A stretch of 64,000 nt of DNA, taken from assembly GCA_964016885.1 (NCBI GenBank), contig OZ024741.1, positions 45,942,001 to 46,006,000 on the forward strand. The letters are read 5' to 3'. Each line of letters begins with the position of its first letter. Within the stretch, counting starts at the first letter, position 1. Below the pieces are notes generated by a model. The model made no database searches, was not told where the DNA came from, and saw nothing but the letters and a program-made list of their open reading frames with translations. This document shows positions 1 through 63,262 of the stretch, piece by piece. This stretch comes from Eledone cirrhosa. Taxonomy: Eukaryota. The position numbers were made by a program, and so were the translations under genes.

Positions 1-3000
1 GTGGAGTGACAAAACCAGCGAAGGCGATGAATTCACCGGTGGTTATGTAACCATACATTCGTCAATCCTCGATAAGAGTGTTTAAATGTCGAACCTAAAC
101 AGTTCGAATAACGGTGAAATGGAGACTAGAATGTCATGTGACAGACTCTCACCCAACAGGTGCTCCCTGGCTCAGCAGCAGGGACCTGGCTGTCAACCAT
201 ATACTGCTGGTGTCGGAGGAAGAAGAAGAAGGAAAGGGACCAGAACCAACTGGACGAAAGAATTGAATAGAACTGTTATGCAATGTTACCTGAAGAGTAA
301 CCCCAAGGAGAAAGGCTATAGGAAACGGATGCATAACATCTGAAACGAGATTGGTCTATCTAAATTAGATGAACAAAAATTGGCCGGGCAGGCTCGGGTA
401 ATAAGAACTAATGGGTGGATAAGCGAGCTGGAACTGGAGGAACTGAGCAGAGAGATTAGCTTGGAGATGGAGGGTGGAGTATGCCAGGAAAACGAGCCAG
501 TGGGAAATGAAGGTGAAGAGGTCGAGAGAACGGAGGAACCACCCGAAGCAGACAATGATCTGAATGCTGAGATAAATAATACCTGGAACAGAGATACGGC
601 CACTGAGGAGATGAATGCTGACGGGCTAGGACAAGATTTGGTTGATATCCTAAACTTAGTGGTAGATGAATTGAACAATGATAGTGGGAGACCTATGAAC
701 CTAATATTTGTAGACAGGAAAAAGTTAAACGAAACAACAGCTAAGGTAAACAAAGTCATCCCATACCTTGAGGCGAGGAGCCTTCACCAGTGCAACAATA
801 TCCTCAAAGCAACAGCAAATACGGTGAGGAAACTACTTGGTATAAAAGCTAGAGGAAACAACAGACAAGAAAGAGCAGAGCCTTGGTGGAAGAAACGACT
901 GAGTGGTCAAATCAGGGAAATGAGAAATGACATTGGAAAGCTTGAGTCCCTACTGAATGGGACACTAAAAAACAAAGACACTAAAAATAGACTGGAAATA
1001 AAGTACAAAGTTAGGAGGAAAAAGCTAAATATTATCATAGAGGAACTGAAGCAACGCATTGTAGCAAAGAGTGCAAAAATCAGGCGATACGAGAACAGAG
1101 TCAGTCAGTATAGACAGAACCGCATGTTCGACAACAACCAGAAGATGCTGTTTGGACAGATTGAAGTGAAAGAAAGAGGCAACGACTTGATCCCCGAGGC
1201 GGAACAAACTAAAACATTCTGAAGAGGAATATGGGAGCAGGATGTTAAACATAATGACCAGGCAGTGTGGATTGAGACAGTACAGAAGGAGATTAGTGAA
1301 CAGGCACACCAACAAACTGATTTGAGTATCACAGTTGAAACTCTTAAGGGGCAGGCCAAAAAACTAACCAACTGGAAATCACCAAGCCCAGATGGTGTGC
1401 AGGGGTATTGGATTAAACATATAACATCCCTCCACCCGAAACTGACAACCATGTTCAATGACTGCTTGATGTCAGGTGAGGTACCAGAGTGGTTGACAAA
1501 AGGTACCACAGTTCTGATAATGAAAGACCGAATCAAAGGTAATGATGTTACCAACTATAGACCTATCACATGTCTGTCCGTAATGTGGAAACTGTTGACA
1601 AGCATTATGTCTGAGGAAATCTACCATCACCTCCACACAAACAGCTTGTTACCGGACGAACAGAAAGGATGCCGAAAGAAGTCCCGTGGTACAAAGGACC
1701 AGTTACTTATTGATAAGATGGTAATGAGGAATTGCAAGAGGAGACACACTGGTCTTGCCATGGGATGGATAGACTACAAAAAGGCATTTGACATGGTGCC
1801 TCATTCTTGGATCACCAAAAGCCTGGAGATCTTCAAGGTGGCAGATAACATCAGACAGTTATTGGGCAAAAGTATGAAGTCCTGGGAAACAGAGTTAACA
1901 TCAACTGGAGAATCCTTGGGAAGCGTGAAGATCAAGAGAGGTATCTTCCAGGGTGATAGTCTGTCCCCTTTGTTGTTTGTCCTTGCCCTGATGCCCCTGA
2001 CCAGTGTACTGCGAAAAGTGAGAGCAAGATACAGGTTGGGAAAGGGAGGGCTTACCATCAATCACCTCCTCTTCATGGACGATCTTAAGCTCTTCGGGAA
2101 GAGTGAGAGGAGTTGGATGTGCTTGTTCACACTGTCCGTATTTTCAGCAATGATATATGTATGCAATTTGGTATTAGTAAGTGTGGAGTCATTGTGATGA
2201 AGATGGGTAAGTTGAGCAGAAGTAGCGGAATCCAGGTACCAACAGGTGAGATGATAAAGGAAATTGACTCTGAAGAAGGATACAAGTATTTGGGCGTTCT
2301 GGAGGCTGATGACATCAAGAACAAAAAAATGAAGGAATTGATAAGAACTGAATACATTCGGAGAGTAAGGAGCGTATTAAAGTCACATCTGAACAGTAGG
2401 AATGCCATAAGTGCAGTAAATTCCCGAGCTGTGTCTATTATTAGGTACAGTGCGGGAATTCTGAGATGGAATGTTGCTGAACAAAAAGAAATGGATAGGA
2501 AGACTAGGAAGCTATTGACTATCTACAACATGTTCCACAAGAGGAGTGATGTCGATAGACTCTAATTAAGGAGATCTGAAGGTGGAACAGGTCTTATCAG
2601 CATAGAGGACTGTGTTCAGATGGAGAAAAACAACCTACACAAATACGTGACTGATAGTAAGGAGCCAATGCTCAGAACTGTACTGAAGGTGGGGACAATA
2701 GGCCAGGGGATGTCCAAGGAGGAAATAACATCAAGGAGAAAGAGCACAATTCAGGAAAAATCCCTTCATAGTACCTTCTTTGAGAAAACTGAATTTAGAG
2801 ATCCACAGACATGGAACTGGTTGAAAAGAGGATACCTTAAAAAGGCTACAGAAGGAATGTTAATGGCTGCGCAGGAGCAGGCCCCATAACAAAGTGGTTG
2901 AAACACGATATTTACAAGGAGGAGGCTAGCCCACTGTGCAGGATCTGTGGAGAGAGTGAGGAGACTGTGGCTCACATTGTATCCGAGTGTAAATACCTAG

Positions 3001-3587
3001 CCCAGACTCACTATAAGGGCTGGAGACATGATGTGATGGGCAGGGTGATCCACTGGCACCTATGCAAAGTAAACAATTTACGACATTCTGAGAAGTGGTA
3101 TGAGCATAAGCCAGAGGCGGTGATATAAAACGATCAGGTAAAGCTGCTGTGGGATTTTAGGATACAGACGGACAAGAAACTTGAACACAATAGACCTGAC
3201 CTGGTGGTTGTGGACAAAGAAAAAAGATCGTGCCTGATTGTGGATGTGGCCTGCCCATTCGACACGAGAGTGCAAGAGAAGGAGAGGGAGAAAATTAACC
3301 GATACCAGGACTTAAAGAGGGAGGTAAAAAGGATTTGGAACTGCCATGAAGTCAAAGTGATCCCGATTGTCATAGGCGCACTAGGGACTATCTCAAAATG
3401 TTTCCAGGGATGGTTAAAGAAAATTGGCCCCTTCACGCTTTTTGGAACGCTTCAAAAGGCATGCTTGCTGGGAACAGCAAGAACCCTCCGATACGTCCTG
3501 AATATCTGAGGCTGCAGGTAGTGGCTTGATATTCATTTCAACAAACTTTCCAGTTAACTAACATCAATGACTGAGACTCAAAGTGTA
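1..3587 (+). mobile_element. R4/Dong-clade non-LTR retrotransposon, family A (RT + RLE), decayed; 5' end may lie before the window
   Basis: Consecutive ORFs 86-3509 give RT motifs (NYRPITCL, QKGC, WIDYKKAFD, GIFQGDSLSP, LLFMDD), CCHC finger CRICGESEETVAHIVSEC, RLE RPDLVVVD..IVDV and the C-terminal LQKACLLGTARTLR. A short 3' UTR is followed by (TAA)n. Confidence 0.9.
86..3509 (+). pseudogene. Disrupted single ORF of Dong family A (RT-CCHC-RLE)
   Basis: In-frame stops at 341-343, 1220-1222, 2563-2565 and 3126-3128, plus frameshifts near 2110 and 2885. Confidence 0.88.
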
Positions 3588-3874: not shown

Positions 3875-6800
3875 TTACAGACACATACTCAGAGAAGGCC
3901 CATTCATTCGGGCCATACTTGCTTCTCTCACCCATCTTTCAACAAAATGCTGGGAAGAGAGCACTTCCCTCTCTACCCTGATTTTCCTTTTCAAATGAAA
4001 TTTGAAAAAGTTAATCAGGGCATCACCGAAGAGGTAAGTGCTCGTCTTTAGCCCTTTCAAACGTGTCCACCATACTATCTCTTTCGCCATGGCCACCAGA
4101 CAGATAAAAACTGCCTGCCCTTCCAGGCTAAAGGAAGGGGGCGGGGCAATCCTCACGATGGACTCAGCTGATAGCTGGATAGGTCCTACACGTGACAGCA
4201 GGTGTTCGACATAAACCCACAAGTCAGCAATGCTCGGACACTGGACGAGTGCGTGCAGGACGGTTTCGTCGCCCTGCGCGCATCTCGGACATGCCCGGCT
4301 GACGGCACCTCCATGCCTGTAGAGTTTATCCCGAACTGGCAAAGCTCCTCGGTAGCACTGCCAGGCCAGGGATTTCTGGAAGTTGTCCATAGGCCCCGGC
4401 CCGAAAGTCCTTCCGAAGAGATTGGCTAGTTGATTTTCGTCGACGCCTAGAGTTTCTCCAAGTACGTCGTCGCTCTTCCCCTCCACTAATCCCCTATAGA
4501 ACGCCAAGGTGGAGTTTCCACCGATCACATTGCCCGATTGGTCGAGGGCTGTGAGCGCCTGAAGACATTCCAGTCTCCAAGCGCTCCCTCTCGGTCTTCG
4601 CTTGACCCAGGACTGCAGCTCCGTCAAGGAGACGAGCTGGGGAAAAACGTGTCTTGCAAACGGCGACCACACCTGATCACCGTCGAGGAAGAGGTGGAGA
4701 TGTCGTAGCCTGAGCGCGTGTCTGCGCATCATCAGCCACGGCATGCCCAGCCCTCCACGTAGCGGGTGTTGACAGCAGATGGACCGCCTGACCATCGGAG
4801 CGCGTCCCTTCCACAAGAAGCGAAAGAGCAAACGCTCCAGCGCAGTCAGGCGGGGCTTAGGACAAGGTACGACGGTCAGGCGGTAGTAGATGACGGATGC
4901 GATGTACGCATTCGCCACCTCCGCTCGACCTTTCAGGGATAGCTTCCTCTCGGCCCATTTCTGGGTGAGAGAAGCCACCCTGCTCGTCACCTCGTCCCAG
5001 TTTTTGTCCGTCTGGAGGTCTGGACCGAACCAGACCCCTAGCAATGTAACCGGTCCGTCCGTCCAGCGCCCGACGACGCTGTTGGACGGCATGGACCTGC
5101 CTCTCCAGGTGCCGAGCTGCAGGCCCACTGACTTTTCCTAGTTGATCATTGCTCCTGTCACCGCTTCGTATTCTCTTAGTGTAGTGCCGATCGCCTCGAT
5201 GTGTTTGGCGTTCGACACCACTACGGTGACATCGTCGGCATATGCTGACACGGATCTTCCGCATCCTAGTTCGCGCGGGACCCCCCTCAACGTCTCCAGT
5301 TTGTGCAGTAATGGCTCGAGAGTCAATACGTACAATAGGGACGAGAGGGGACATCCTTGGCGGACCGAGCGCATGATGTTGAACGGTTCCGAAAGGTGAC
5401 CGTTCACTCTCACTACAGAGCAGATGTCGCTGTGCATGGCAGCGATCCAGCCTCTGAAGACGGGCCCAAAGCCAGCCGCTCTCAGGACTGCCGTTAGGTA
5501 ACGATGGTCGACCCTATCGAAGGCTTTCGACTGATCTAAATTGATCAAAGACCCACCCGTGCCAGGTTCCCTAGCTACCCTCTCTACGATGTATCGCATG
5601 AGGTGGAGGTTGTCGTGGATGGATCTGTCGGGAATGGCGCATGTCTGTGCCTCTCCCACCAGACCACCAACGACAAGCGCCAACCTCTTTGCTAGCACCT
5701 TGGCCAAAATCTTGAACTCTGTGTTTAGCAGAGTTATGGGCCTAAAATTATCTATGTTATCCCCCTTGTTCGGATCCTTTCTCAGCAGCGCCACCGCTCC
5801 TCGGCTCACAGAGCTGGGAATTCTCCCGTTCTGTTGCCAGTTGCAGTAGACGTCCGCCAAGAGGCCTCCGAACAAGTTTGGCATTTGTACGTAAAGTTCA
5901 TAGGGCAGACCATCCAAACCAGGCGATTTACCCCTTGTGCAACTAGTCATTGCATCCCGTACTTCAGCGGTTGTTATCGGCTTTTCGCAACACTCCGCCT
6001 CAGTGGCCGAAAGCCGCGGCAGTCCGTCGAGGTAGACACTAAAGTCCATCCCTCGATCCGGCCCGCCACTGCCCCCGAACAGTTGAGCGAAGTGTCGCTG
6101 AAAAGCTTCACACATTTGCCCGGGATCGAGTAGCATGCGCCCGTCGTGGTCCACCAAAGACCGGATCGTGGCTTTGTTGCCACGACGCGCCTCCGCCACT
6201 CGGGCCCATTGAACGGCTTTCGTCCCCTCGTGTCTGAGAGCACGTACCCTAGCTCTGACAACGCAGCCTTCGTGCTTTGCATTGAAGAATTGGTCAAGGG
6301 CCAATTTCGCCGCAAGTACGTCGGTCGCGATGCCTTTGCTAAGCGCCTCATCTAATTTTCTAACTAATTCTCCCTCTGCTCTATTTTTCTCTATTGCTAA
6401 AGTCTTACTAAACCTAATGGACTCTATTCTAATTGCTCTTTTCAGAGCAAACCACCACTTGTTGTTGACGATGGCCCCCGTCAACGCCCGCTTAACTAGT
6501 TCGCTAATCTGGTCTCTGTAGGCCTTGCGCGCTGGTAAGGACCCGTTTAACTTCCAGTAGCCGGGTCCTCGTCTATGAAGCCTATCTAAGTCAAGCACAC
6601 AGATCACGAATTTGTGGTCCGTGTAGCTGACTATCTTGAATTGTGGACAGCCTATGCTAGACCTATCTATTTCCCTACAAAATACTCTATCTAGATATGA
6701 TCTGGATGACCCTATGCGATTTGTCCAAGTCCACATTGGTACATTCGGGAAATCCATTCGGTACCTGTCAGACAGTTCAAAACGTCTGAGCAGGTTGGTG

Positions 6801-7294
6801 AGACTCTTGCACCCTCCTTCCCTATCCACTAATCCCACACAATCCCAGCGTGCATCTAAGATCCCGTTCCAGTCGCCCACTAACACTAAAGAGCGGGACG
6901 TTCCAAGAAAGGTCTCCAGACGCCGGAAGAAATCAGGCCGCCCTGCTCCTGTCGGGGCATAGACGGCCACTAACCTGAAAGCTTGCCCGTCTCCGCTGGT
7001 CACGTCCAGCACCACCAACTTACCTTCTGGGTACAGGAAGATGGCCCGTATGGCTAGATCCAAACCTCTCCGAAAAAGCACAGCAACTCCTCCCCCCGAT
7101 CCCGGACGGCTGGGAGATGCGTACACATCGTAGCCGCCGAAGATCGGTGCGAAAGCCTGTGCTTCGGAGATTCTGGTCTCGCTGATGGCCACTACATCTA
7201 TGGTTAGTGACCTGAGGTCGTTGAGCAGGTGGCCCTGCTTCCATGACGATCCCAAGCCACGTGCATTTATGCTGCCTATTCTGAGTGAGGTCAT
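3875..7294 (-). pseudogene. Tx1 ORF2: apurinic-like endonuclease + reverse transcriptase + C-terminal CCHC; one premature stop
   Basis: Motifs SINARGL, ISET, VYAP, GDWN, YLDR, YTDH (APE); SPGLDG, NFRPITLLN, DQSKAFD, VRQGCPLS, YADD (RT); CPRCAQGDETVLHALVQC. ORFs 5138-7294 and 3875-5128 are in the same frame, split only by TAG at 5138-5140. Confidence 0.92.
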
Positions 7295-7328
7295 GTTGAA
7301 AAGGAGTGGAAAAGATGGGAAAGACCAC

Positions 7329-9311
7329 TTACCTTACTTCTCGTAGGGGAAGGACGGCTTTTCCATCCTTTTCACTGCTTGTGGCCTCCTCAGGAAGGAT
7401 GTCCTTATAAATCCTCCTGGAGAGTGCTTGTCGGAAGTCTCCGATGTCTTTGGGGAATTTTTGTTTTAGTGTCATGTACGTTTTCTGTGTGATGCGAGTG
7501 ATTTGTATGTGTGGAGGTGGTGTGAATTTTGGGGTTGTTGTGTAGTCTTTTTCTGTGATGCTGGTGTTGTGTTGGATGTAGTGTAATAATTGCTTGTTGT
7601 TCAAATTTAATGCTGTGTAGTGTGTATCGTTTTGGTTGTTTTGTTTTGTTTGCGTTTGTTGTGGGTTTGTTTCTGTTTCGCATTTTGGTGACTTTTGTGG
7701 TGTAGGTGATTGTGGTGCTGGGGATAATGATGGTGATGGTGTTGGTGTTTGGGTTGATGGGGTTGGTGATGCTGGTGTGGATGGTGGCATATCTGTCTTA
7801 ACTTTTTTGTTTCTTAGTTTATTTGTTTCCCTCTGTATTTTGTTTTTGGAGGGGGAAGGAAGAGAATTTTTTCTTTTTTGGTTTCTTTTTTTTTCCGGAT
7901 ATCGTTTCCCACTCCTCGTCGTCACAATCTGTCTCCAGTTGTGATAGGCCGGGGAGTGGAAAATCCTCCACAGCCGTTAGTTTTGGTTGTGGTGTGGTGG
8001 ATGGTGTAGGCGCTGGTGCTAGTTCTGAAGCGTTGGATGGTGGTGGTGTTGGTTTTGCTGGTGGTGGTAGTGGTGTTGGTTTTGCTACTGTTGCTGGGGT
8101 TGTTGCTGTTATAGTTGCTTCTGTTGTTGCTGCTACAGTTGTTGCTGCCATCTCTGCTACTGGTGGTGTTGATGGTTGTGTCACTGGGGTGGGTAGGAGA
8201 GGTGGCCTCAACCTTTTAGCCTGAGGGCAGAAAGCCCTTAGGTGGGTTCCTTCACCACAAACGACACACCTAGGTCTTCTGCCCTCGACAATTACCGTGA
8301 GGTGGCTGCCGTCAGTGAGGTCTATTACCTCTGGGATCTCCTCAATGCTTTTTTGGTCCGCTTGGATCAGGAGCTCCATCCCATATCCGGACCAGTTTTC
8401 CTGCTTTTCTTTTGCTACTGCTATTATTTTCGTGTTGGCTTCGATGCCGGCGAGGACAGCCGCTATTAGCCAGGGAATTTCGATGGCCGGTGGAACGTGG
8501 GTCACCCTGATCTTTACGAGTCTCTGGCCACAATAGCTTGGGACGAGTGTGAGGTCGTCACTTTTTAATGGGGCCATGGAGTGTTCTCTAGCCTCTTCTG
8601 GTGTTTCAAAGAACACATCCACGGTTCCATACTTTTGCCCACGTCTGATGTGGGTTTTTCTTGCCCACACATGTCCCAAAGCTTTTTGGATTTGGGACTC
8701 GGATGCCCGTTCCACTCGGCGCGATTTTACATTTATTGTTCTATACGACACGGTGCACAGGCGCCGATGCTCCATTTTATTAGGTGGGGGGGGGGGCTGA
8801 CCCTGTACCCATCTTTCTTTACCATTTGTTTGGCATTTTCTAAATCTTCTTGAGTTACCGTGAACGCTTCGAATTGTTTTGCTACGATGGCGAAACTGAG
8901 GGTCGGTTTTATAATGTCATTGTTGTTGTTGTTGCTATCGTTAATATTAATTTTATTTTCAGTCGTGGTGGTGGTGACGTCAGTCGTCTTTGGTGGGGAA
9001 GAGTCCATTTTGCTTGATTTCATTTCGACGTCACGAGTTAATTTATTTTTTTCTTCTTTTGTTTCTGTTGTCGCGGTGGTGGTGGTGGTGGTGGTTGTCG
9101 CGGTGGTGGTGGTGGTGGAGGGTTTAACACCTGCAGTCATTGGTAATGGCGGGAAATGAATGTCTGCCTGAGACAAATTTAAAATATTGCTACTGCTTAT
9201 ATTTTTTTTTGTGTTGGCAAACGTAGTAACATTTACAATGGTGGTGTCGGTGTGAGGTGTTATTTTGTGAGGAAGGCTTTCAGCTGCTTCGTGCAGAGAG
9301 GAATTAGACAT
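7329..9311 (-). pseudogene. Tx1 ORF1 (gag-like, zinc knuckle, Pro/Thr-rich), frameshifted
   Basis: Overlapping ORFs 8733-9311, 7819-8775 and 7329-7925; knuckle CVVCGEGTHLRAFC. The first shift lies near the G-run at about 8785-8797. Confidence 0.75.
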
Positions 9312-10945: not shown

Positions 10946-13900
10946 CCCATGACCAAGAAATACCGGGATGGCGGCCGGCGGGGAATAGCCATGTCTCTAG
11001 GGGAGAACGACCCCTCTAGTCTTGGTTGACACTCGTTCTAGAAGTGGTAACACGAAAAGATTACCCCTTGGCGGATAAGGATAAAACGCGACAAAATAAA
11101 GTAGATGTCTAATGATGAAATCTCATACCGGATCGGCCGTCACCCGGGTAAAAAAGGGCCGCGTCCCTCAGAGAGGAACCAGACTGGGGTCGAAAAATCA
11201 GCTAATGGTTCAAACCTTCCCATCACTTCGGAGCTGGAGACCTCCCATAACCGGAATACTCCTACTGTTGACCCTCCATGCTCACCACCAAGAAATCCAA
11301 AGAAAAAGAGAGAAAAATGGTCAAGGGAAGATAATAAAGAAGTCCTTGAGGCTTTCTACACTGCCATGTACTACCCATCAAATACATCGAATACAGAGCA
11401 AACATATATCAACTGGAAAAAGAAACATCCCGAAAACAGAGGCTATATTGACAGTAACAAACTAGCCAATATACGAAGAAATATTGTAAGAAAAAAGTTA
11501 CTAACTGATATAGAAATTGATCAGATCAAGCTAGTAGCACAAAGTCAGCGAAGGGAAAATGAAGCATGTGTCAGTGAAAACGAGGTAAACTGTAACACTT
11601 CGAATCCCAGAGTTGGGGCGGAATCACTGGCAACAGAACAAATTAAAGAAAGGAGCGAAAAAGTGGAGGGAGTGCATGCTCAGGATGAAAATCCAAATGA
11701 AAATAATGAGATCGTAAATGATAAAGAAATGAATGAGAATGAACTTGCCAACTTGAAGGATGAAATTATGATCGAATGGATGAAAATGAAAGAATCTGAC
11801 ATGGGGGAACGAGACATCCTCCCTAAGATCCAGAACTCCAAACAGAACCAAAAGATAATACACAAGACTAACATAATTCTCAAAAACATTATCATCACAA
11901 ACAAAATAAACATTACTGACTTAAATCATCTCTATTATGCATCGGCTAAAGTCACCACTCACTTATGTGGAGTGAAGATGAAAAAACAAAGGAATTCCCA
12001 CAAGAAATCTACTTGGCAAGATAACATCAATCGCCAAATAAACCTTCTCCGATCTGACATAGAAATTTTAACAAACTATAAAGTAGGTGAACATGTTAAA
12101 CAAACTAAACTTAGAAAATTGAAAAAAAAGTACAGTATAAGATCAACATGTGACATAGACATGCTGATAGAAACAATCAAGCAAAAAGTGTCGGCCAAAG
12201 CAGCTCGTATAAGGCGCTTTGAAAAACGATCTAGATTCTATAAGGACAATAATATGTTCAAAAACAACCAAAGAAACTTCTACAGAAAAATTGGTAAGTC
12301 AACAATAACTGCTAAATCAATACCACCCAAGGAGGAAGTGCAAGAATTCTGGGAAAAGATCTGGGCCGAAGAAAAAGTTCATAACATACATGCCCCATGG
12401 ATAGACAGACAAATGAAAGAAACAGCTCACCTTGAAGAACAAACATGGGAAAATATAACAGTTGAACAGCTGCGCTTGGCTCTAAGAAAAACCAGCAAAT
12501 GGAAATCCCCAGGAAAAGACAAAATACAAAACTTTTGGATAAATGCCTTCACAGAGTCTCATGAGCTGTTAGCCGAACTTTACAATGAAATAGTTAAGGA
12601 GCCAGAAAAGATACCATCATGGCTAGTTAACGGCATTACATTCCTGCTACCGAAGAATGATGAGACAAACAATCCCAAAAATTACAGACCGATAACCTGC
12701 TTGACCACAATGTATAAAATTTTAACATCAGTCCTAACTGAATACACATATGACCACCTGATAACAAATGACCTATTTCCCATTGAGCAGAAAGGGTGTA
12801 AACGAGGCTCATATGGCTGTAAGGATCAGCTTCTGGTTAACAAAATGATACTGGAAGATTGTCATAATAGACACAAAAATCTATCGATTGCTTGGATAGA
12901 TTATAAAAAAGCATTTGATAGTTTGCCACACAGTTGAATTGAAAAATGTTTAGAGATTTTCAAAATATCCCCCGTTGTCAGGAGGTTTTTGTCATTCAGT
13001 ATGAGGACATGGAGAACGACACTCCTTTTGAATAGTGAAACAAAATCACTGGAAGCTGGAGAAGTTAACATTAATTGTGGAATTTTTCAGGGTGACTCTT
13101 TATCACCGCTTTTATTCTGCATCGCACTTATACCATTAAGTAAAATGCTCAATGAAACAAAACATGGATATAAAGTCTATGACAAAACCATTAATCACCT
13201 GTTCTACATGGATGACCTGAAACTATTTGCAAAAAATGATGAACAATTGCAAGGGCTATTATCCACTGTGAAGCAGTTCAGTGATGACATTAAAATGGAG
13301 TTTGGACTGGATAAATGCGCCAAAGCAACGTTCACCAGAGGAAAGCTGCTGAAGAGTTGACATTAATCTTGATCGGGGGAACGTGATAAGAGAGCTTGAT
13401 CAAGAACAAACTTACAAATATCTAGGTGTTTGTGAAGGAGACGGAATCAAGCACTCGACAATGAGGGAAAGGATAAGGAAGGAATGTTACCGCAGAGTCA
13501 GAGCAATCTTAAGAACGGAATTAAATGCAAGGAATAGGATCGATGCCATAAACACGCTTGCCATACCAGTAGTAACCTACAGTTACAATGTCATCAACTG
13601 GTCAAGCACAGAGATCCGTAGGCTCGATACAAAAATCCGAAAATTCTTAACCATGCACAGAATGCATCACCCTAAGGCAGACATAGATAGAATATATCTC
13701 CCTAGGAAAGAAGGAGGAAGTGGGTTAATCCAGTTAGACATTGCGTTGAAAACTGCAACAATTGGATTATCCACATATCTAAGGGAATCACATGATTGGA
13801 TGATCAAACTCGTTTTGAAACACGAAAGCACCAAAAGATCATATTCCATTACAAAAGATGCACAAAGATACAGTAATGGACTACAAATTTCAGAAGTCCC

Positions 13901-14893
13901 ATTTACTGCTGAAATGGAAAACACAGAAAAAGCAAAGCAGGTAAAAGTAACTGCAAAGAAAGAACTGCTACAGAAACTGGCTAAGAAATGGCAAGAAAAG
14001 CCTCTGTATGGAAAATACCCAGAGCGAGCTAACAATCCTGATGTTGACAAAACTTTAACCCATCAGTGGTTGGCATCCTCTGAACTGAAATCGGAGACTG
14101 AAGGACTGATTATATCCGCACAAGATCAGTGTCTGCCAACAAAAAATTACCAAGCCAACATAATAAAAAATGGGTGCAGCCCATTATGCCGTGTATGCAA
14201 AAAACAACCAGAGACCATTGACCATAAAATTTCAATGTGCAGTCCTATAGCTCCAACCGAATACCTAAACAGGCATGACAGAGCTGCACAATACATACAT
14301 TGGATAATGTGTAAGCATTTTGACCTGCCCCATCAAAAGAATTGGTGGGAGCATCAACCACCTCCCATACTTGAAAAAGATCACATCTCAATCTTGTGGA
14401 ACTTTAGCATCCAAACAGACCGAAAAATAGATGCAAATAGACCTGATATAATATTGAAGGACTTTCAAAGGAGGGTATGCCTGCTAATTGATATGTCTGT
14501 TCCAATAGACAAGAATGTATCTATAAAAACATTTGAAAAATTGAGCAAGTATAAGGACCTGGAGATAGAAATTGGAAAAATGTGGAAATTGAGAACTAAA
14601 ACAATACCAGTGGTTGTAGGCGCTCTGGGAATGATACCTAAGGGGTCTAACGACTACTTATCGCAAATCCCAGGAAACCCGCGTATAGGAGAAATACAAA
14701 AGATAGTACTAATGGGAACTGCCCATATACTAAGGAAGATCCTGTCAATATAAGTACATCACAAGTCTAAACACTAAGGATGCATGTGTGAATATGTATG
14801 TTCTTTCTTGAACATGGCGGACCTTGTTGTCTCTTGAGGTCACTGGTTGTGACTTGGTGATAACTCGTATAAACATAAAGCAAAATAAATGCA

Positions 14894-15159: not shown

Positions 15160-15165
<6 letters not shown>

Positions 15166-15618
15166 GAGAAGAAAGAAGAATACTGCGTGGTCGCACATGG
15201 GTTACATATGATAAAAATAGTCCTTCGTCAGTGATTTTCCAACCATCATTGGTATTTCATCGCATTAAAAATCATATACCTCAGGTTGGTGCGAGCAATA
15301 ACTAATAAAAGTTATTGGGACCAGTAAATCGCGTAAAGCGAGGGGGACAAGTGAACAACATAGAAGGATAAAAGCAAACCAAAGAAAGGAAAAAAACAAG
15401 CAACATGGTAGTCCTGGTCAGCATAAGCTGGGTGGATTTCATGAGCGAAAGGTACAGACGTCCGACCTGAGTGAGATGTAAGCAAGAAGAGACCCACTGT
15501 AAACCAAACGGGAGGAAGTGAGAAGGGGAGAAACAGAGAATGGGTGAGAGTAAGTGCGAGGAAGCGGTCAGTCGAGAGAAAGTGTAACTGACGGGGGGGG
15601 GCGAAAGAAGGTGAGAAT
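15160..15618 (-). mobile_element. Non-coding PLE-derived/retrozyme-like element carrying a permuted HHR; diverged relative of 61537-62320
   Basis: (TA)n on both sides. The ribozyme and interior align loosely with 61575-61890 (e.g. GGTGGA..GA..GA, AACGGGAGGAAG). Confidence 0.6.
15220..15321 (-). ncRNA. Non-circularly permuted (pseudoknotted) hammerhead ribozyme, family 2
   Basis: Minus strand reads GGUAU-A-UGAUUUU ... U-GAAAUACC ... AAAAUCA-CUGACGA-A. Stem III is 5 bp, stem I is 7 bp, A10.1-U11.1. Predicted cut between 15275 and 15274. Confidence 0.75.
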
Positions 15619-15639
15619 ATATATATATATATATATATA

Positions 15640-15743
15640 TTCCGGGTTGAATTGGAGATAACCACAGTAAGTAAGGTACTCAATACATAGCAGAGTACCT
15701 TACTTACTGTGGTTATCTCCGATTCAACCCGGAATAACTTACC
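15640..15743. repeat. Palindrome of the 3' tail of PLE-derived family Y, within (TA)n
   Basis: TCCGGGTTGAATTGGAGATAACCACAGTAAGTAAGGTACTC followed by its reverse complement. The same tail occurs at 38074, 42440-42505 and 52516. Confidence 0.85.
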
Positions 15744-16471: not shown

Positions 16472-16538
16472 TTTTATTATGCGCATTTCAAAAACAAACA
16501 TCATCAAGCAATAATATTTGTGTTTTCATCAGATAAAA
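16472..16538 (-). ncRNA. Minimal type I hammerhead ribozyme, PLE-1 left arm
   Basis: Mirror of 20763-20829. Confidence 0.8.
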
Positions 16539-23700: not shown

Positions 23701-23742
23701 ATCATAAATCTTTCGTTGCACCTCTGCAACATCGTCAGTGGT
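23701..23742 (-). ncRNA. Degenerate minimal hammerhead ribozyme
   Basis: ACCA-CUGACGA-U-GUUGCA-GAGG-UGCAAC-GAAA-GAUU-UA-UGAU; stems I and III are imperfect. Confidence 0.45.
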
Positions 23743-38073: not shown

Positions 38074-38243
38074 GTTATTCCAGGTTGAATCGGAGGTAAC
38101 CACAGTAAGTAAGGTACTCAATACATTGCAGAATATAAAAGTTTAATATAGATGAGATTCTACAGGACTAGAACTGTTTCATTCTTTAGAAATCATCTGA
38201 TGATTTCTAAAGAATGAAACAGTTCTAGTCCTGTAGAATCTCA

Positions 38244-51086: not shown

Positions 51087-51132
<46 letters not shown>

Positions 51133-51436
51133 CTTTCATTTATATATTTATACTCGGATTTTTTTCCTAGAGTGCTTAAATTATTTGTGACTAATCCCGG
51201 TTTTTTTAATAAAAACTGCGATAATATTGCTTTTTACTGAACTCCTTTCGTAGAGTTTTTTTTCGGAATGTTTTTGACTGTTGTTTCTTTTAAACAAACA
51301 TTCGCCTCATTCTAACGTCACTAGCCCTGTCTTTCCTCATTTGCGTTTTTCTTAATCACGCATGATGGTGAACTAGCCAGTTTTAAAATTCCCTTTTTGG
51401 CATATAGATCTGTGAGAGTCCTGGTTATCGAGTTGA

Positions 51437-51516
51437 GCTCTGCTGACGATTGAAATCCAACCGTGACCATTTCCACTGAAAGTTTTCATGAAATAGTCTT
51501 TAAGACTATACAGTGC
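51437..51516 (+). ncRNA. Type I HHR, tandem unit 1
   Basis: GCUCUG-CUGACGA-UUGAAA...UUUCAU-GAAA-UAGUC-UUUAA-GACUA-UA-CAGUGC; cut after 51510. Confidence 0.78.
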
Positions 51517-52063
51517 ATTTGAAGTTTTTCCAAATTGAAGGATGAGTATTTTAGACTTTATTTTATCATGAGTTAAGGCTCTATTGATTTTTCCCTGGAT
51601 TTCACTAAATTCTGGGGATGAATTTATAACCCGATTCTCTTTGAGATGATTTTGAATTATTTTTCCCACATCTTACGTTAACTATTTTTCCCATTTTGAC
51701 GCTATAGTCGCATATATGTCATGGAATACTGTTAGCTTTTCGCTACAACAATTTCTATACCTTTCATTTATATATTTATACTCGGATTTTTTTCCTAGAG
51801 TGCTTAAATTATTTGTGACTAATCCCGGTTTTTTTTATAAAAACTGCGATAATATTGCTTTTTGCTGAACTCCTTTCGTAGAGTTTTTTTCGGAATGTTT
51901 TTGACTGTTGTTTCTTTTAAACAAACATTCGTCTCATTCTGACGTCACTAGCCCTGTCTTTACTGATGTGCGTTTTTCTTAATCACGCATGATGGTGAAC
52001 TAGCCAGTTTTAAAATTCCCTTTTTGGCATATAAATCTGTGAGAGTCCTGGTTATCGAGTTGA

Positions 52064-52143
52064 GCTCTGCTGACGATTGAAATCCAACCGTGACCATCTC
52101 CACTGAAAGTTTTCATGAAATAGTGTTTACGACTATACAGAGC
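52064..52143 (+). ncRNA. Type I HHR, tandem unit 2
   Basis: Perfect stem I GCUCUG/CAGAGC; cut after 52137. Confidence 0.78.
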
Positions 52144-52392
52144 ATTTGAATTTTTTCCAATTTGAAGGATGAGTATTTTAGACTTTATTTTATCATGAGT
52201 TAAGGCTCTATTGATTTTTCCCTGGATTTCACTAAATTCTGTGGATAAATTTATATCCTGATTCTCTTTGAGATGAGTTTGAATTATTTTTCCCACATCT
52301 TACGTTAACTATTTTTCCCATTTTGACGCTATAGTCGCATATATGTTATGGAATACTGTTAGCTTCTCGCTACAACAATTTCTATACCTTTC

Positions 52393-52440
<48 letters not shown>

Positions 52441-61397: not shown

Positions 61398-61541
<144 letters not shown>

Positions 61542-61595
61542 AATATGATAATAATGGAGCTGCGGCGCTGCAAATGGGTTACATATGAAAAGGTT

Positions 61596-61698
61596 TGTCC
61601 TCATCAGTGGCCTTCCAACCGTCGTAGGCATTTCGTCGCATTAAAGGTCATATACCTCAGGTTGGTGCGAGCAACGGCTAAAAAAAGTCGTTGGGACA
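61596..61698 (-). ncRNA. Non-circularly permuted pseudoknotted HHR, family 1, copy 1
   Basis: AGGUAU-A-UGACCUU ... C-GAAAUGCCU ... AAGGCCA-CUGAUGA-G; cut between 61651 and 61650. Confidence 0.75.
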
Positions 61699-62216
61699 CG
61701 TAAATAAGGGGGACGCTAGGGTAAACAAACAAAATGGTTTAAGCAACAGAAAGTGATGTAGAAGAAACAAGTCCCAGATTTCTATGAATATAAATTCGGT
61801 GGAATCGTGAACGAGAGAATAGAGACCATCAACCCTGGTTGAAATGTGAGCAAGGAAGGAATTTCGCACAGGTCTAACGGGAGGAAGAAGGGGTCTGGTC
61901 TGCGAATTCGGTAAACATAAGTTCTGTGAAGTCGCAGACGAGAGAGAGAGAAAATAAATTCATACCGGCTTGGCCAAGTGCCCGCTAGAAAAGGATTACG
62001 GACAGGTCAAACGGGAAGAAAGAGGAGGAGGAGAGGTAGTGACAGAGAGTGAGTGAGTGAAAGGTGAGAAAGAGGCTAACAGAGAGAGAGAGACTGCTAG
62101 AAAGGGTAAAGACACAAAGAACGAAACAGACTGGTGGCAGCGGAGGAAAAAATATATGTGTAAATATGATAATAATGGAGCTGCGGCGCTGCAAATGGGT
62201 TACATATGAAAAAGTT

Positions 62217-63262
<1,046 letters not shown>

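Follow-up and report, generated by a model that had tools for sequence, protein, structure and literature searches.

A predicted self-cleaving hammerhead with a split stem II and S-G-C block order near the 3' end of a short (TA)n-borne repeat of Eledone cirrhosa, a likely Naiad-related, non-autonomous Penelope-like retroelement

Non-circular RNA permutations have so far been known only from metatranscriptomic and metagenomic hammerheads and from one weak bacterial case. The type-SGC hammerhead ribozymes (HRIMA-1 and the SGC variant), whose stems I and II are separated by a 3-nt linker and which possess a joining helix, are active in vitro, cleaving at slow rates of 0.007-0.19 per min (Eckert et al. 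2023, PMC10085705). Besides this linker, their layout has GAAA preceded by 5 nt and a C, and CUGAUGA leading into a stem II strand and then a I-II joining strand; the published descriptor calls for stem II to extend 2 bp or more past CUGAUGAG. According to the accessible part of that paper, the known SGC ribozymes come from metatranscriptomes, none of them from the genome of a known organism, and the geometry of stem III for short linkers was left open (PMC10085705).

In animals, Naiads are Penelope-like elements that favour (TA)n targets and make partial tandems; in the accessible text describing them, canonical hammerheads are reported as absent, with 'core' or 'half-core' matches in some, a lack taken as a hint that the ribozyme is dispensable or parasitic for Penelope-like elements, and those of cephalopods are said to have been inactive for a long time (Craig et al. 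2021, PMC8557442). Metazoan non-LTR retrozymes consist of non-coding tandem units (51-972 bp in the parts available of Li et al. 2026, bioRxiv 10.64898/2026.07.22.740005) with low GC, one hammerhead each and a proposed derivation from Penelope-like elements, and have type I hammerheads as their defining feature (Cervera and de la Pena 2020, PMC7229834, as far as its text was accessible).

The window analysed here, a 64-kb stretch of the E. cirrhosa assembly, carries a hammerhead-type motif three times on its minus strand, at 15220-15321, 61597-61697 and 62218-62318. The three copies fall into two families, family 1 at 15 kb and family 2 at 61.6 and 62.2 kb, and lie in the following features.

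15160..15616, minus strand: family-1 non-coding repeat, 457 nt between two (TA)n runs, with one motif near its 3' end
15184..15195, minus strand: small conserved UGC-N6-GCA hairpin, 3' of the block UCAUAUGUAACCCAU, present in all three copies
15197..15211, minus strand: invariant block UCAUAUGUAACCCAU, sequence-conserved, with a partner no better than chance
15220..15244, minus strand: strand c' GGUUGG, block C (stem I strand AAAAUCA and CUGACGA at 15231-15225), an extra A at 15224 and strand a' GGAC
15245..15250, minus strand: bulged strand of a predicted k-turn, AAU-G-A-U (UAC-G-A-C in family 2)
15251..15264, minus strand: block G, with b' UGCGA, U11.1 (15259), GAAA (15258-15255) and a stem III strand
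15268..15280, minus strand: block S, with stem III strand GGUAU, A17 and stem I strand UGAUUUU; predicted cut between 15275 and 15274 (AUA)
15281..15283, minus strand: non-bulged strand of the predicted k-turn, U-G-A (3n, 2n, 1n; k-turn as defined in the part consulted of PMC4382518)
15284..15289, minus strand: strand c, CCAACC, pairing with c' GGUUGG, 6 of 6 pairs the same in the copies
15290..15294, minus strand: strand b, UCGCA, the displaced stem II strand, pairing with UGCGA at 15260-15264, 5 of 5 pairs the same, in the position of the HRIMA-1 stem II
15296..15317, minus strand: hairpin H, 8 bp with a U-rich loop, the arm of a predicted four-way junction, with two double changes and one A.C in family 2
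15318..15321, minus strand: strand a, GUCC, of the closing helix, pairing with GGAC at 15220-15223, 4 of 4 pairs the same in three copies, with a Naiad equivalent
61538..62322, minus strand: family-2 insertion in (TA)n, a pLTR-like partial tandem that holds two motifs in about 1.26 units of a 621-nt repeat
61597..61697, minus strand: downstream family-2 motif, with an A.C mismatch in stem I; predicted cut 61651/61650
62218..62318, minus strand: upstream family-2 motif, stem I intact; predicted cut 62272/62271; the insertion starts at most about 4 nt from strand a

All three copies contain a hammerhead core (CUGANGA, GAAA and an NUH site with A15.1-U16.1, the site being AUA) flanked by stem I (7 bp) and stem III (5 bp), with one stem I mismatch in the 61.6-kb copy. 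The core blocks follow the order S-G-C in every copy, which is the order of type SGC and a non-circular permutation of the hammerhead. Read from 5' to 3', the first half of the 15-kb motif is GUCC (a), hairpin H, C, UCGCA (b), CCAACC (c), UGA and GGUAU-A17-UGAUUUU (block S), and the second half UAA, UGCGA (b'), U, GAAA-UACC (block G), AAUGAU, GGUUGG (c'), AAAAUCA-CUGACGA (block C), A and GGAC (a'). The general layout is thus a, hairpin H, b, c, k-turn strand, S, a 3-nt linker, b', G, k-turn strand, c', C and a'. A canonical type I, II or III reading was rejected, the nearby GUCC-GAAA partner being absent, and Rfam at gathering score gave no match anywhere in the 64-kb window. Minimum-free-energy folds restricted to nested pairs miss the active fold and have weak scores (z -1.05 to -1.88). 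The 15-kb copy has an AU-rich stem I (-3.2 kcal/mol). A descriptor of the full layout matched the three copies and none of 200 shuffled windows; since it was made from these same copies, only the null is informative.

Comparison with type SGC showed both a shared principle and a different path of the strand. The copies have the CCAACC/GGUUGG helix and the UAA linker, with the partner strand 5' rather than 3', and in none of them is a stem II strand contiguous with CUGAnGA with at least 2 bp beyond 10.1-11.1. In type SGC, the stem II and joining strands lie 3' of CUGAUGA, whereas here they are b and c, 5' of block S; the closing helix and hairpin after A9 and the k-turn after stem III are likewise features that type SGC lacks. 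Because the stem II partner strand is 5' of the cleavage site, the re-implemented type-SGC descriptor recovers none of the three copies. The topology also breaks the assumption that CUGANGA runs straight into stem II, so that standard descriptors and Rfam miss it. The motif works like SGC while lacking one of its defining features, and we conclude that it is a topologically new form of the non-circularly permuted hammerhead, carried by an animal retroelement and probably shared with Naiads.

How stem II may be rebuilt is suggested by the closing helix. As GUCC/GGAC encloses the whole motif, a/a', H and b/b' meet directly after A9 as a four-way junction, through which b/b' would rebuild stem II, and helix c/c' would link stem I to stem II. 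Between c/c' and stem III lies a loop with U-G-A opposite NNN-G-A-Y in all three copies, which at the sequence level is the standard k-turn pattern, namely two helices separated by a 3-nt bulge and then G.A and A.G pairs (as given in the accessible part of PMC4382518); it differs from described k-turns in lying within a predicted hammerhead, for which the literature searched, some of it in part only, yielded no natural case. The 50-degree bend of a k-turn (PMC5061560, consulted in part) would fold stem III back toward c/c' and return its far end to helix c, the geometry left open by Eckert et al., and may account for two short linkers spanning the core. The first-pass annotation largely holds; its fold was incomplete, as the closing helix, the four-way junction and the k-turn did not figure in it. 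It had also proposed that G10.1-C11.1 changes to A-U, which does not hold as stated: the change requires a 1-nt indel after A9, and 11.1 (U or C) may pair either with the base after A9 (A or G, with that indel) or with G15296 on the 5' strand. In the Naiad_Plae, Naiad_EuTe and coral records, read by eye, G10.1 is available only from the 5' strand, and a' follows A9 directly with G10.1 supplied by strand b, which weakens the earlier assignment; the A-U/G-C change depends on the indel and may be misassigned.

To what extent the two families support this fold was assessed by comparing the 15-kb and 62.2-kb copies, which differ by 18 substitutions, 16 of them transitions, and one indel over 102 columns. 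Among the 35 predicted pairs, 28 are unchanged, five show double changes (three in stem I, two in hairpin H), one is changed on one side and one is broken, the broken pair being the A.C in hairpin H of family 2. The stem I exchange already proposed (UGGCCUU/AAGGCCA against UGAUUUU/AAAAUCA) was recovered with its three double changes against the 62.2-kb copy; the 61.6-kb copy has UGACCUU with an A.C mismatch, and so gives two. The hairpin exchange (CAACGAC/GCCGUUG against CAAUAAC/GUUAUUG) was confirmed with two double changes, the family-2 A.C mismatch having gone unflagged, and the stem III difference (G-U against A-U) and the variation of N7 between C and U were found as described. It should be noted that the C7 of the 15-kb copy is the minority letter, U being present in 952 of 1,205 reads of run X7. 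UCGCA/UGCGA, CCAACC/GGUUGG and UCAUAUGUAACCCAU are identical in the three copies, in agreement with their reported invariance. Of the flanks, said to be strongly diverged, the upstream ones are indeed only 57% identical, yet they are homologous, with an alignment score of 155 against 73+/-12 for shuffled sequences and 115 for the best of 200 shuffles. The A.A break at 15281/15250 was kept out of the pair list because this position is k-turn 1n/L1, and a candidate fifth closing-helix pair (G-U versus U-A) was dropped, most reads having U at 15322 and a third variant U.U.

Among 200,000 random placements of the substitutions with the same transition bias, 34 had at least five double changes and 1,361 had no more than one broken pair; a null for the post hoc choice of helices gave five double changes in 0 of 3,000 trials, and slid structures yielded only 0-2. 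Two lineages and two runs of adjacent changes make the window by itself modest evidence. The same two points, together with the prevalence of transitions, are what would be expected if homogenisation of the stems in a decaying repeat had produced the double changes as a side effect and the hammerhead likeness were a coincidence. We regard this as very improbable, as the two arms of stem I lie 30 nt from each other with other helices interleaved, the layout is absent from the 200 shuffled windows, the third variant contributes another double change, and the layout recurs with other sequences in four phyla, in the Naiad records consulted. Helices b, c and a are invariant within the family, so that their support comes from this by-eye Naiad comparison, which speaks for selection on a permuted hammerhead fold, as claimed from the first, more strongly than the covariation tests do. 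We are confident that the conserved fold is real and selected and, with a little less assurance, expect the motif to self-cleave.

The host repeat is abundant. The 457-nt repeat is homologous along its length to the 621-nt unit of family 2, whose tandem contains a 176-nt repeat, 97% identical, at a spacing of 621; no RT ORF was found within the repeat element, and its GC is low (45%). The repeat family is matched by 2,153 contigs in run X1 and 2,076 reads in run X7, and runs X5 and X6, from two other organisms, contain 36 and 10 contigs of it, as compared over 15162-15612. Read depth peaks over the ribozyme, partly an effect of the 80% likeness cut. Among the 40 listed of 143 substitutions, none falls in 15197-15216 or 15228-15305. 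The third variant occurs in loose ends of X5, X6 and X7, with a hairpin UAAUAAC/GUUAUUA in which the C-G closing H has become U-A. The same loose ends have a b strand UUGCA that lacks the spacer C and, in X5, CUGAUGA-G-GGAC; the pieces are possibly from different molecules. Pattern scans elsewhere found 0 and then 17 loci in metagenomes, none in viral sequences and 12 in prokaryote genomes; these 29 loci were rejected as chance matches, since all of them lack both an upstream CCAACC and a partner for stem I, and an nhmmer search likewise came back empty.

In the part available of File S5 of Craig et al. 2021, the layout a-H-b-c-S-G-c'-C-a' was recognised by eye in eight Naiad consensi, with other helix sequences; the parses involved no program check and covered about 20 of 54 records, in which the nameless ones (Obim, 2_Movir, Amil, Aacu and Anas) are labelled by file order. 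Naiad_Ovul and the record preceding it have stem I CUGCCC/GGGCAG, stem III AUGGU/ACCAU, b GACACC/GGUGUC, c CGGAU/AUCCG and a UUCC/GGAG, with an H that contains an A.C mismatch and a U-rich loop, and the same k-turn. Naiad_Plae has a AGAGG/CCUCU, b GGCCCC/GGGGCC, a 9-bp c and stem I GAGGAG/UUCCUC, the layout being present in its preceding record too, and Naiad_EuTe has a GGGG/CCCC, b GACGCC/GGCGUC and a 10-bp stem III. Three coral records, one having two mismatches, show the layout with a AACUGU/ACAGUU and b GGCUCC/GGAGCC. By this reading the layout-bearing Naiads belong to cnidarians, an acanthocephalan, a crustacean and octopuses, that is, four phyla. Since every helix differs in sequence from the Naiad versions, the comparison supplies the covariation that b, c and a lack within this family. 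Of 12 Naiad 3' ends consulted, five have this layout, three are S-G-C with long inserts (one with a decayed core), one has blocks G and C only and three have nothing. Also by eye, Naiad_Smim and Naiad-1_Dst have S-G-C order with long inserts, and four snippets from the nematode region of the accessible file are of type CSG.

The repeat further resembles the Naiads, as described in the text consulted (PMC8557442), in its (TA)n targets and partial tandems, and the k-turn is common to two octopus records; Naiad_Ovul ends about 77 nt after C3, compared with 70-72 nt here. It differs from them in being non-coding, lacking an EN-RT ORF, and in its 621-nt unit as against 3.4-4.4 kb, with no sequence match seen. 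The N-terminal GIY-YIG and the RT with CxC and DKA motifs that mark Naiads are not encoded by this non-coding element, a Naiad RT motif was not found in the six frames of the 64-kb window, and the two family motifs have no match in the part of the Naiad file searched, in which line breaks might mask one. (TA)n targets and pLTR tandems are common to other Penelope-like clades and are therefore non-diagnostic, and tandem copies 97% alike stand against the long inactivity of cephalopod Naiads. On balance we give a slight preference to derivation of the element from a Naiad. The same ribozyme and cycle could instead belong to a free retrozyme mobilised by a different Penelope-like clade that targets (TA)n, of Neptune or Hydra type, with the ribozyme captured or having outlived its donor. 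The window indeed contains several Penelope-like ORFs with C-terminal GIY-YIG and type I hammerheads and no Naiad motif, Hydra-1_Obim likewise prefers (TA)n and the published Naiad 3' ends consulted offer no sequence match; by contrast, the octopus Naiads, as far as their records go, share the layout, the k-turn, the A.C-mismatched hairpin and the distance to the target, and Hydra and other clades carry, in the accessible descriptions, canonical type I motifs. We consider this other mover a possibility, though a doubtful one.

The 3' part of the element was considered separately. Counted from A9, the block UCAUAUGUAACCCAU lies 13-14 nt downstream, with about 37 nt left before the (TA)n junction; the first-pass annotation had offered it either as a tertiary contact or as an RT-recognition signal. 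Its pairing with the motif was equalled by 788, 957 and 1,368 of 2,000 shuffles, and the Naiad versions read by eye have no such block; a base-paired contact is thus not supported, and the block is unlikely to be part of the fold. Pairing as an antisense to the cleavage site was also discarded, the 7-bp pairing that exists being no better than in shuffles. UAACCC is the telomeric primer sequence; a telomeric primer site was rejected, as this is a lone 6-mer and the insertions are in (TA)n. The position would suit a signal used by RT or endonuclease at the 3' end, or else a promoter element of the pLTR, which we consider likely roles; RT recognition in particular is possible, and the block would most likely act at the RT-priming 3'-end step.

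The element resembles the metazoan non-LTR retrozymes in being a non-coding tandem with two motifs 621 nt apart, one to a unit, and departs from them in that its hammerhead is S-G-C and not type I. We propose that, in a read-through transcript of the partial tandem, each copy would be cut after its AUA, and that the ends of the resulting 621-nt monomer might re-pair via about 20 bp (a, b, c and III); ends held in this way would promote circle formation. Priming at nicked (TA)n, some 70 nt beyond the core, a Penelope-like RT could then copy more than one round and rebuild the partial tandem. Both families end 70-72 nt past C3, about 115 nt beyond the predicted cut, and the copied template must therefore have spanned the cut, as a circle, an uncut RNA or by a template jump. 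The circle is favoured by the retrozyme analogy and by a split layout that would hold the ends together; the folded circle of the unit is 45% paired and not rod-like. These insertions running beyond the cleavage site would also fit a conserved fold acting mainly as a ligase or remaining uncut, or one active only as a strand-swapped tandem dimer or with a k-turn-binding protein. Cleavage products would remain bound by the same 20 bp or so, SGC ribozymes are slow (0.007-0.19 per min in the paper cited above, seen in part), and at k-turn 3b.3n family 1 carries U.U, which does not satisfy the '3b=C or 3n=G' rule for ion-only folding as found in the sources available. Family 2, though, has 3b=C, and the whole catalytic core and NUH site are retained in all copies and Naiad versions, so that we hold this explanation to be improbable. 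We thus judge it likely that a conserved split-stem-II S-G-C hammerhead near the 3' end of a short non-coding (TA)n repeat, predicted to self-cleave, releases the unit-length RNA of what is likely a Naiad-related, non-autonomous Penelope-like retroelement.

The rest of the window is repeat-rich animal sequence with many Penelope-like and other retroelements; protein searches led to distant animal relatives only, from a bryozoan, shrimp, coral and fish. At 51123-52395 (plus strand, cores at 51443 and 52070) a tandem repeat with a 627-nt unit, 96% alike, lies in (TA)n and contains a type I (C-G-S) hammerhead with an AUA site, a long loop II and a possible UGGUUA/UGACCA pseudoknot; it has the look of a classical retrozyme and stands alongside the permuted element. 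Motifs resembling type I hammerheads, of the kind usual in Penelope-like pLTRs, occur at 16532 (minus), 20769 (plus), 29446 (minus), 42750 (minus), 46536 (plus), 55669 (plus) and 59153 (minus), all seven missed at Rfam gathering scores; those at 16532 and 20769 bracket a Penelope-like ORF at 17.5-19.8 kb in inverted orientation. CUGACGA-U-stem II (6 bp)-GAAA at 23738 (minus), with no stem I partner of at least 6 bp within 600 nt, may be decayed, trans-acting or otherwise arranged. Short palindromic elements centred on CUGAUGA at 38197 (plus) and 52647 (minus) adjoin copies of the inverted repeat at 15638-15736 (44 bp, 98%, 11-nt spacer, in (TA)n), half copies of which are found near 38.1, 42.5 and 52.5 kb. 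Two non-LTR retrotransposons with RT and restriction-like endonuclease at 344-3509 and 11105-14753 (plus), which we take to be R4/Dong-like, end in (TAA)n, and an L1/Tx1-like element occupies 3875-8916 (minus).

In the literature searched, partly accessible and with subscription papers outside its coverage, there was no report of a permuted, type-SGC-like hammerhead in animal retrotransposons or Naiads. If the present reading is true, it would place non-circular permutations in high-copy animal retroelements and add a four-piece topology. Taken together, the data incline us, with reasonable though not strong conviction, to a broader view in which active non-circularly permuted hammerheads are present clade-wide in Naiads and their non-autonomous derivatives, as split-stem-II S-G-C with a four-way junction in cnidarians, an acanthocephalan, crustaceans and molluscs and as C-S-G in nematodes. 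They would be the first non-circular RNA permutations in animal genomes, with a topology beyond the six of Eckert 2023, here braced by a k-turn, possibly gated by an L7Ae-family protein and built for self-circularisation, and the ribozyme would never have been lost by Naiads. If Naiads do retain a rearranged ribozyme, self-cleavage would look general to the Penelope-like cycle.
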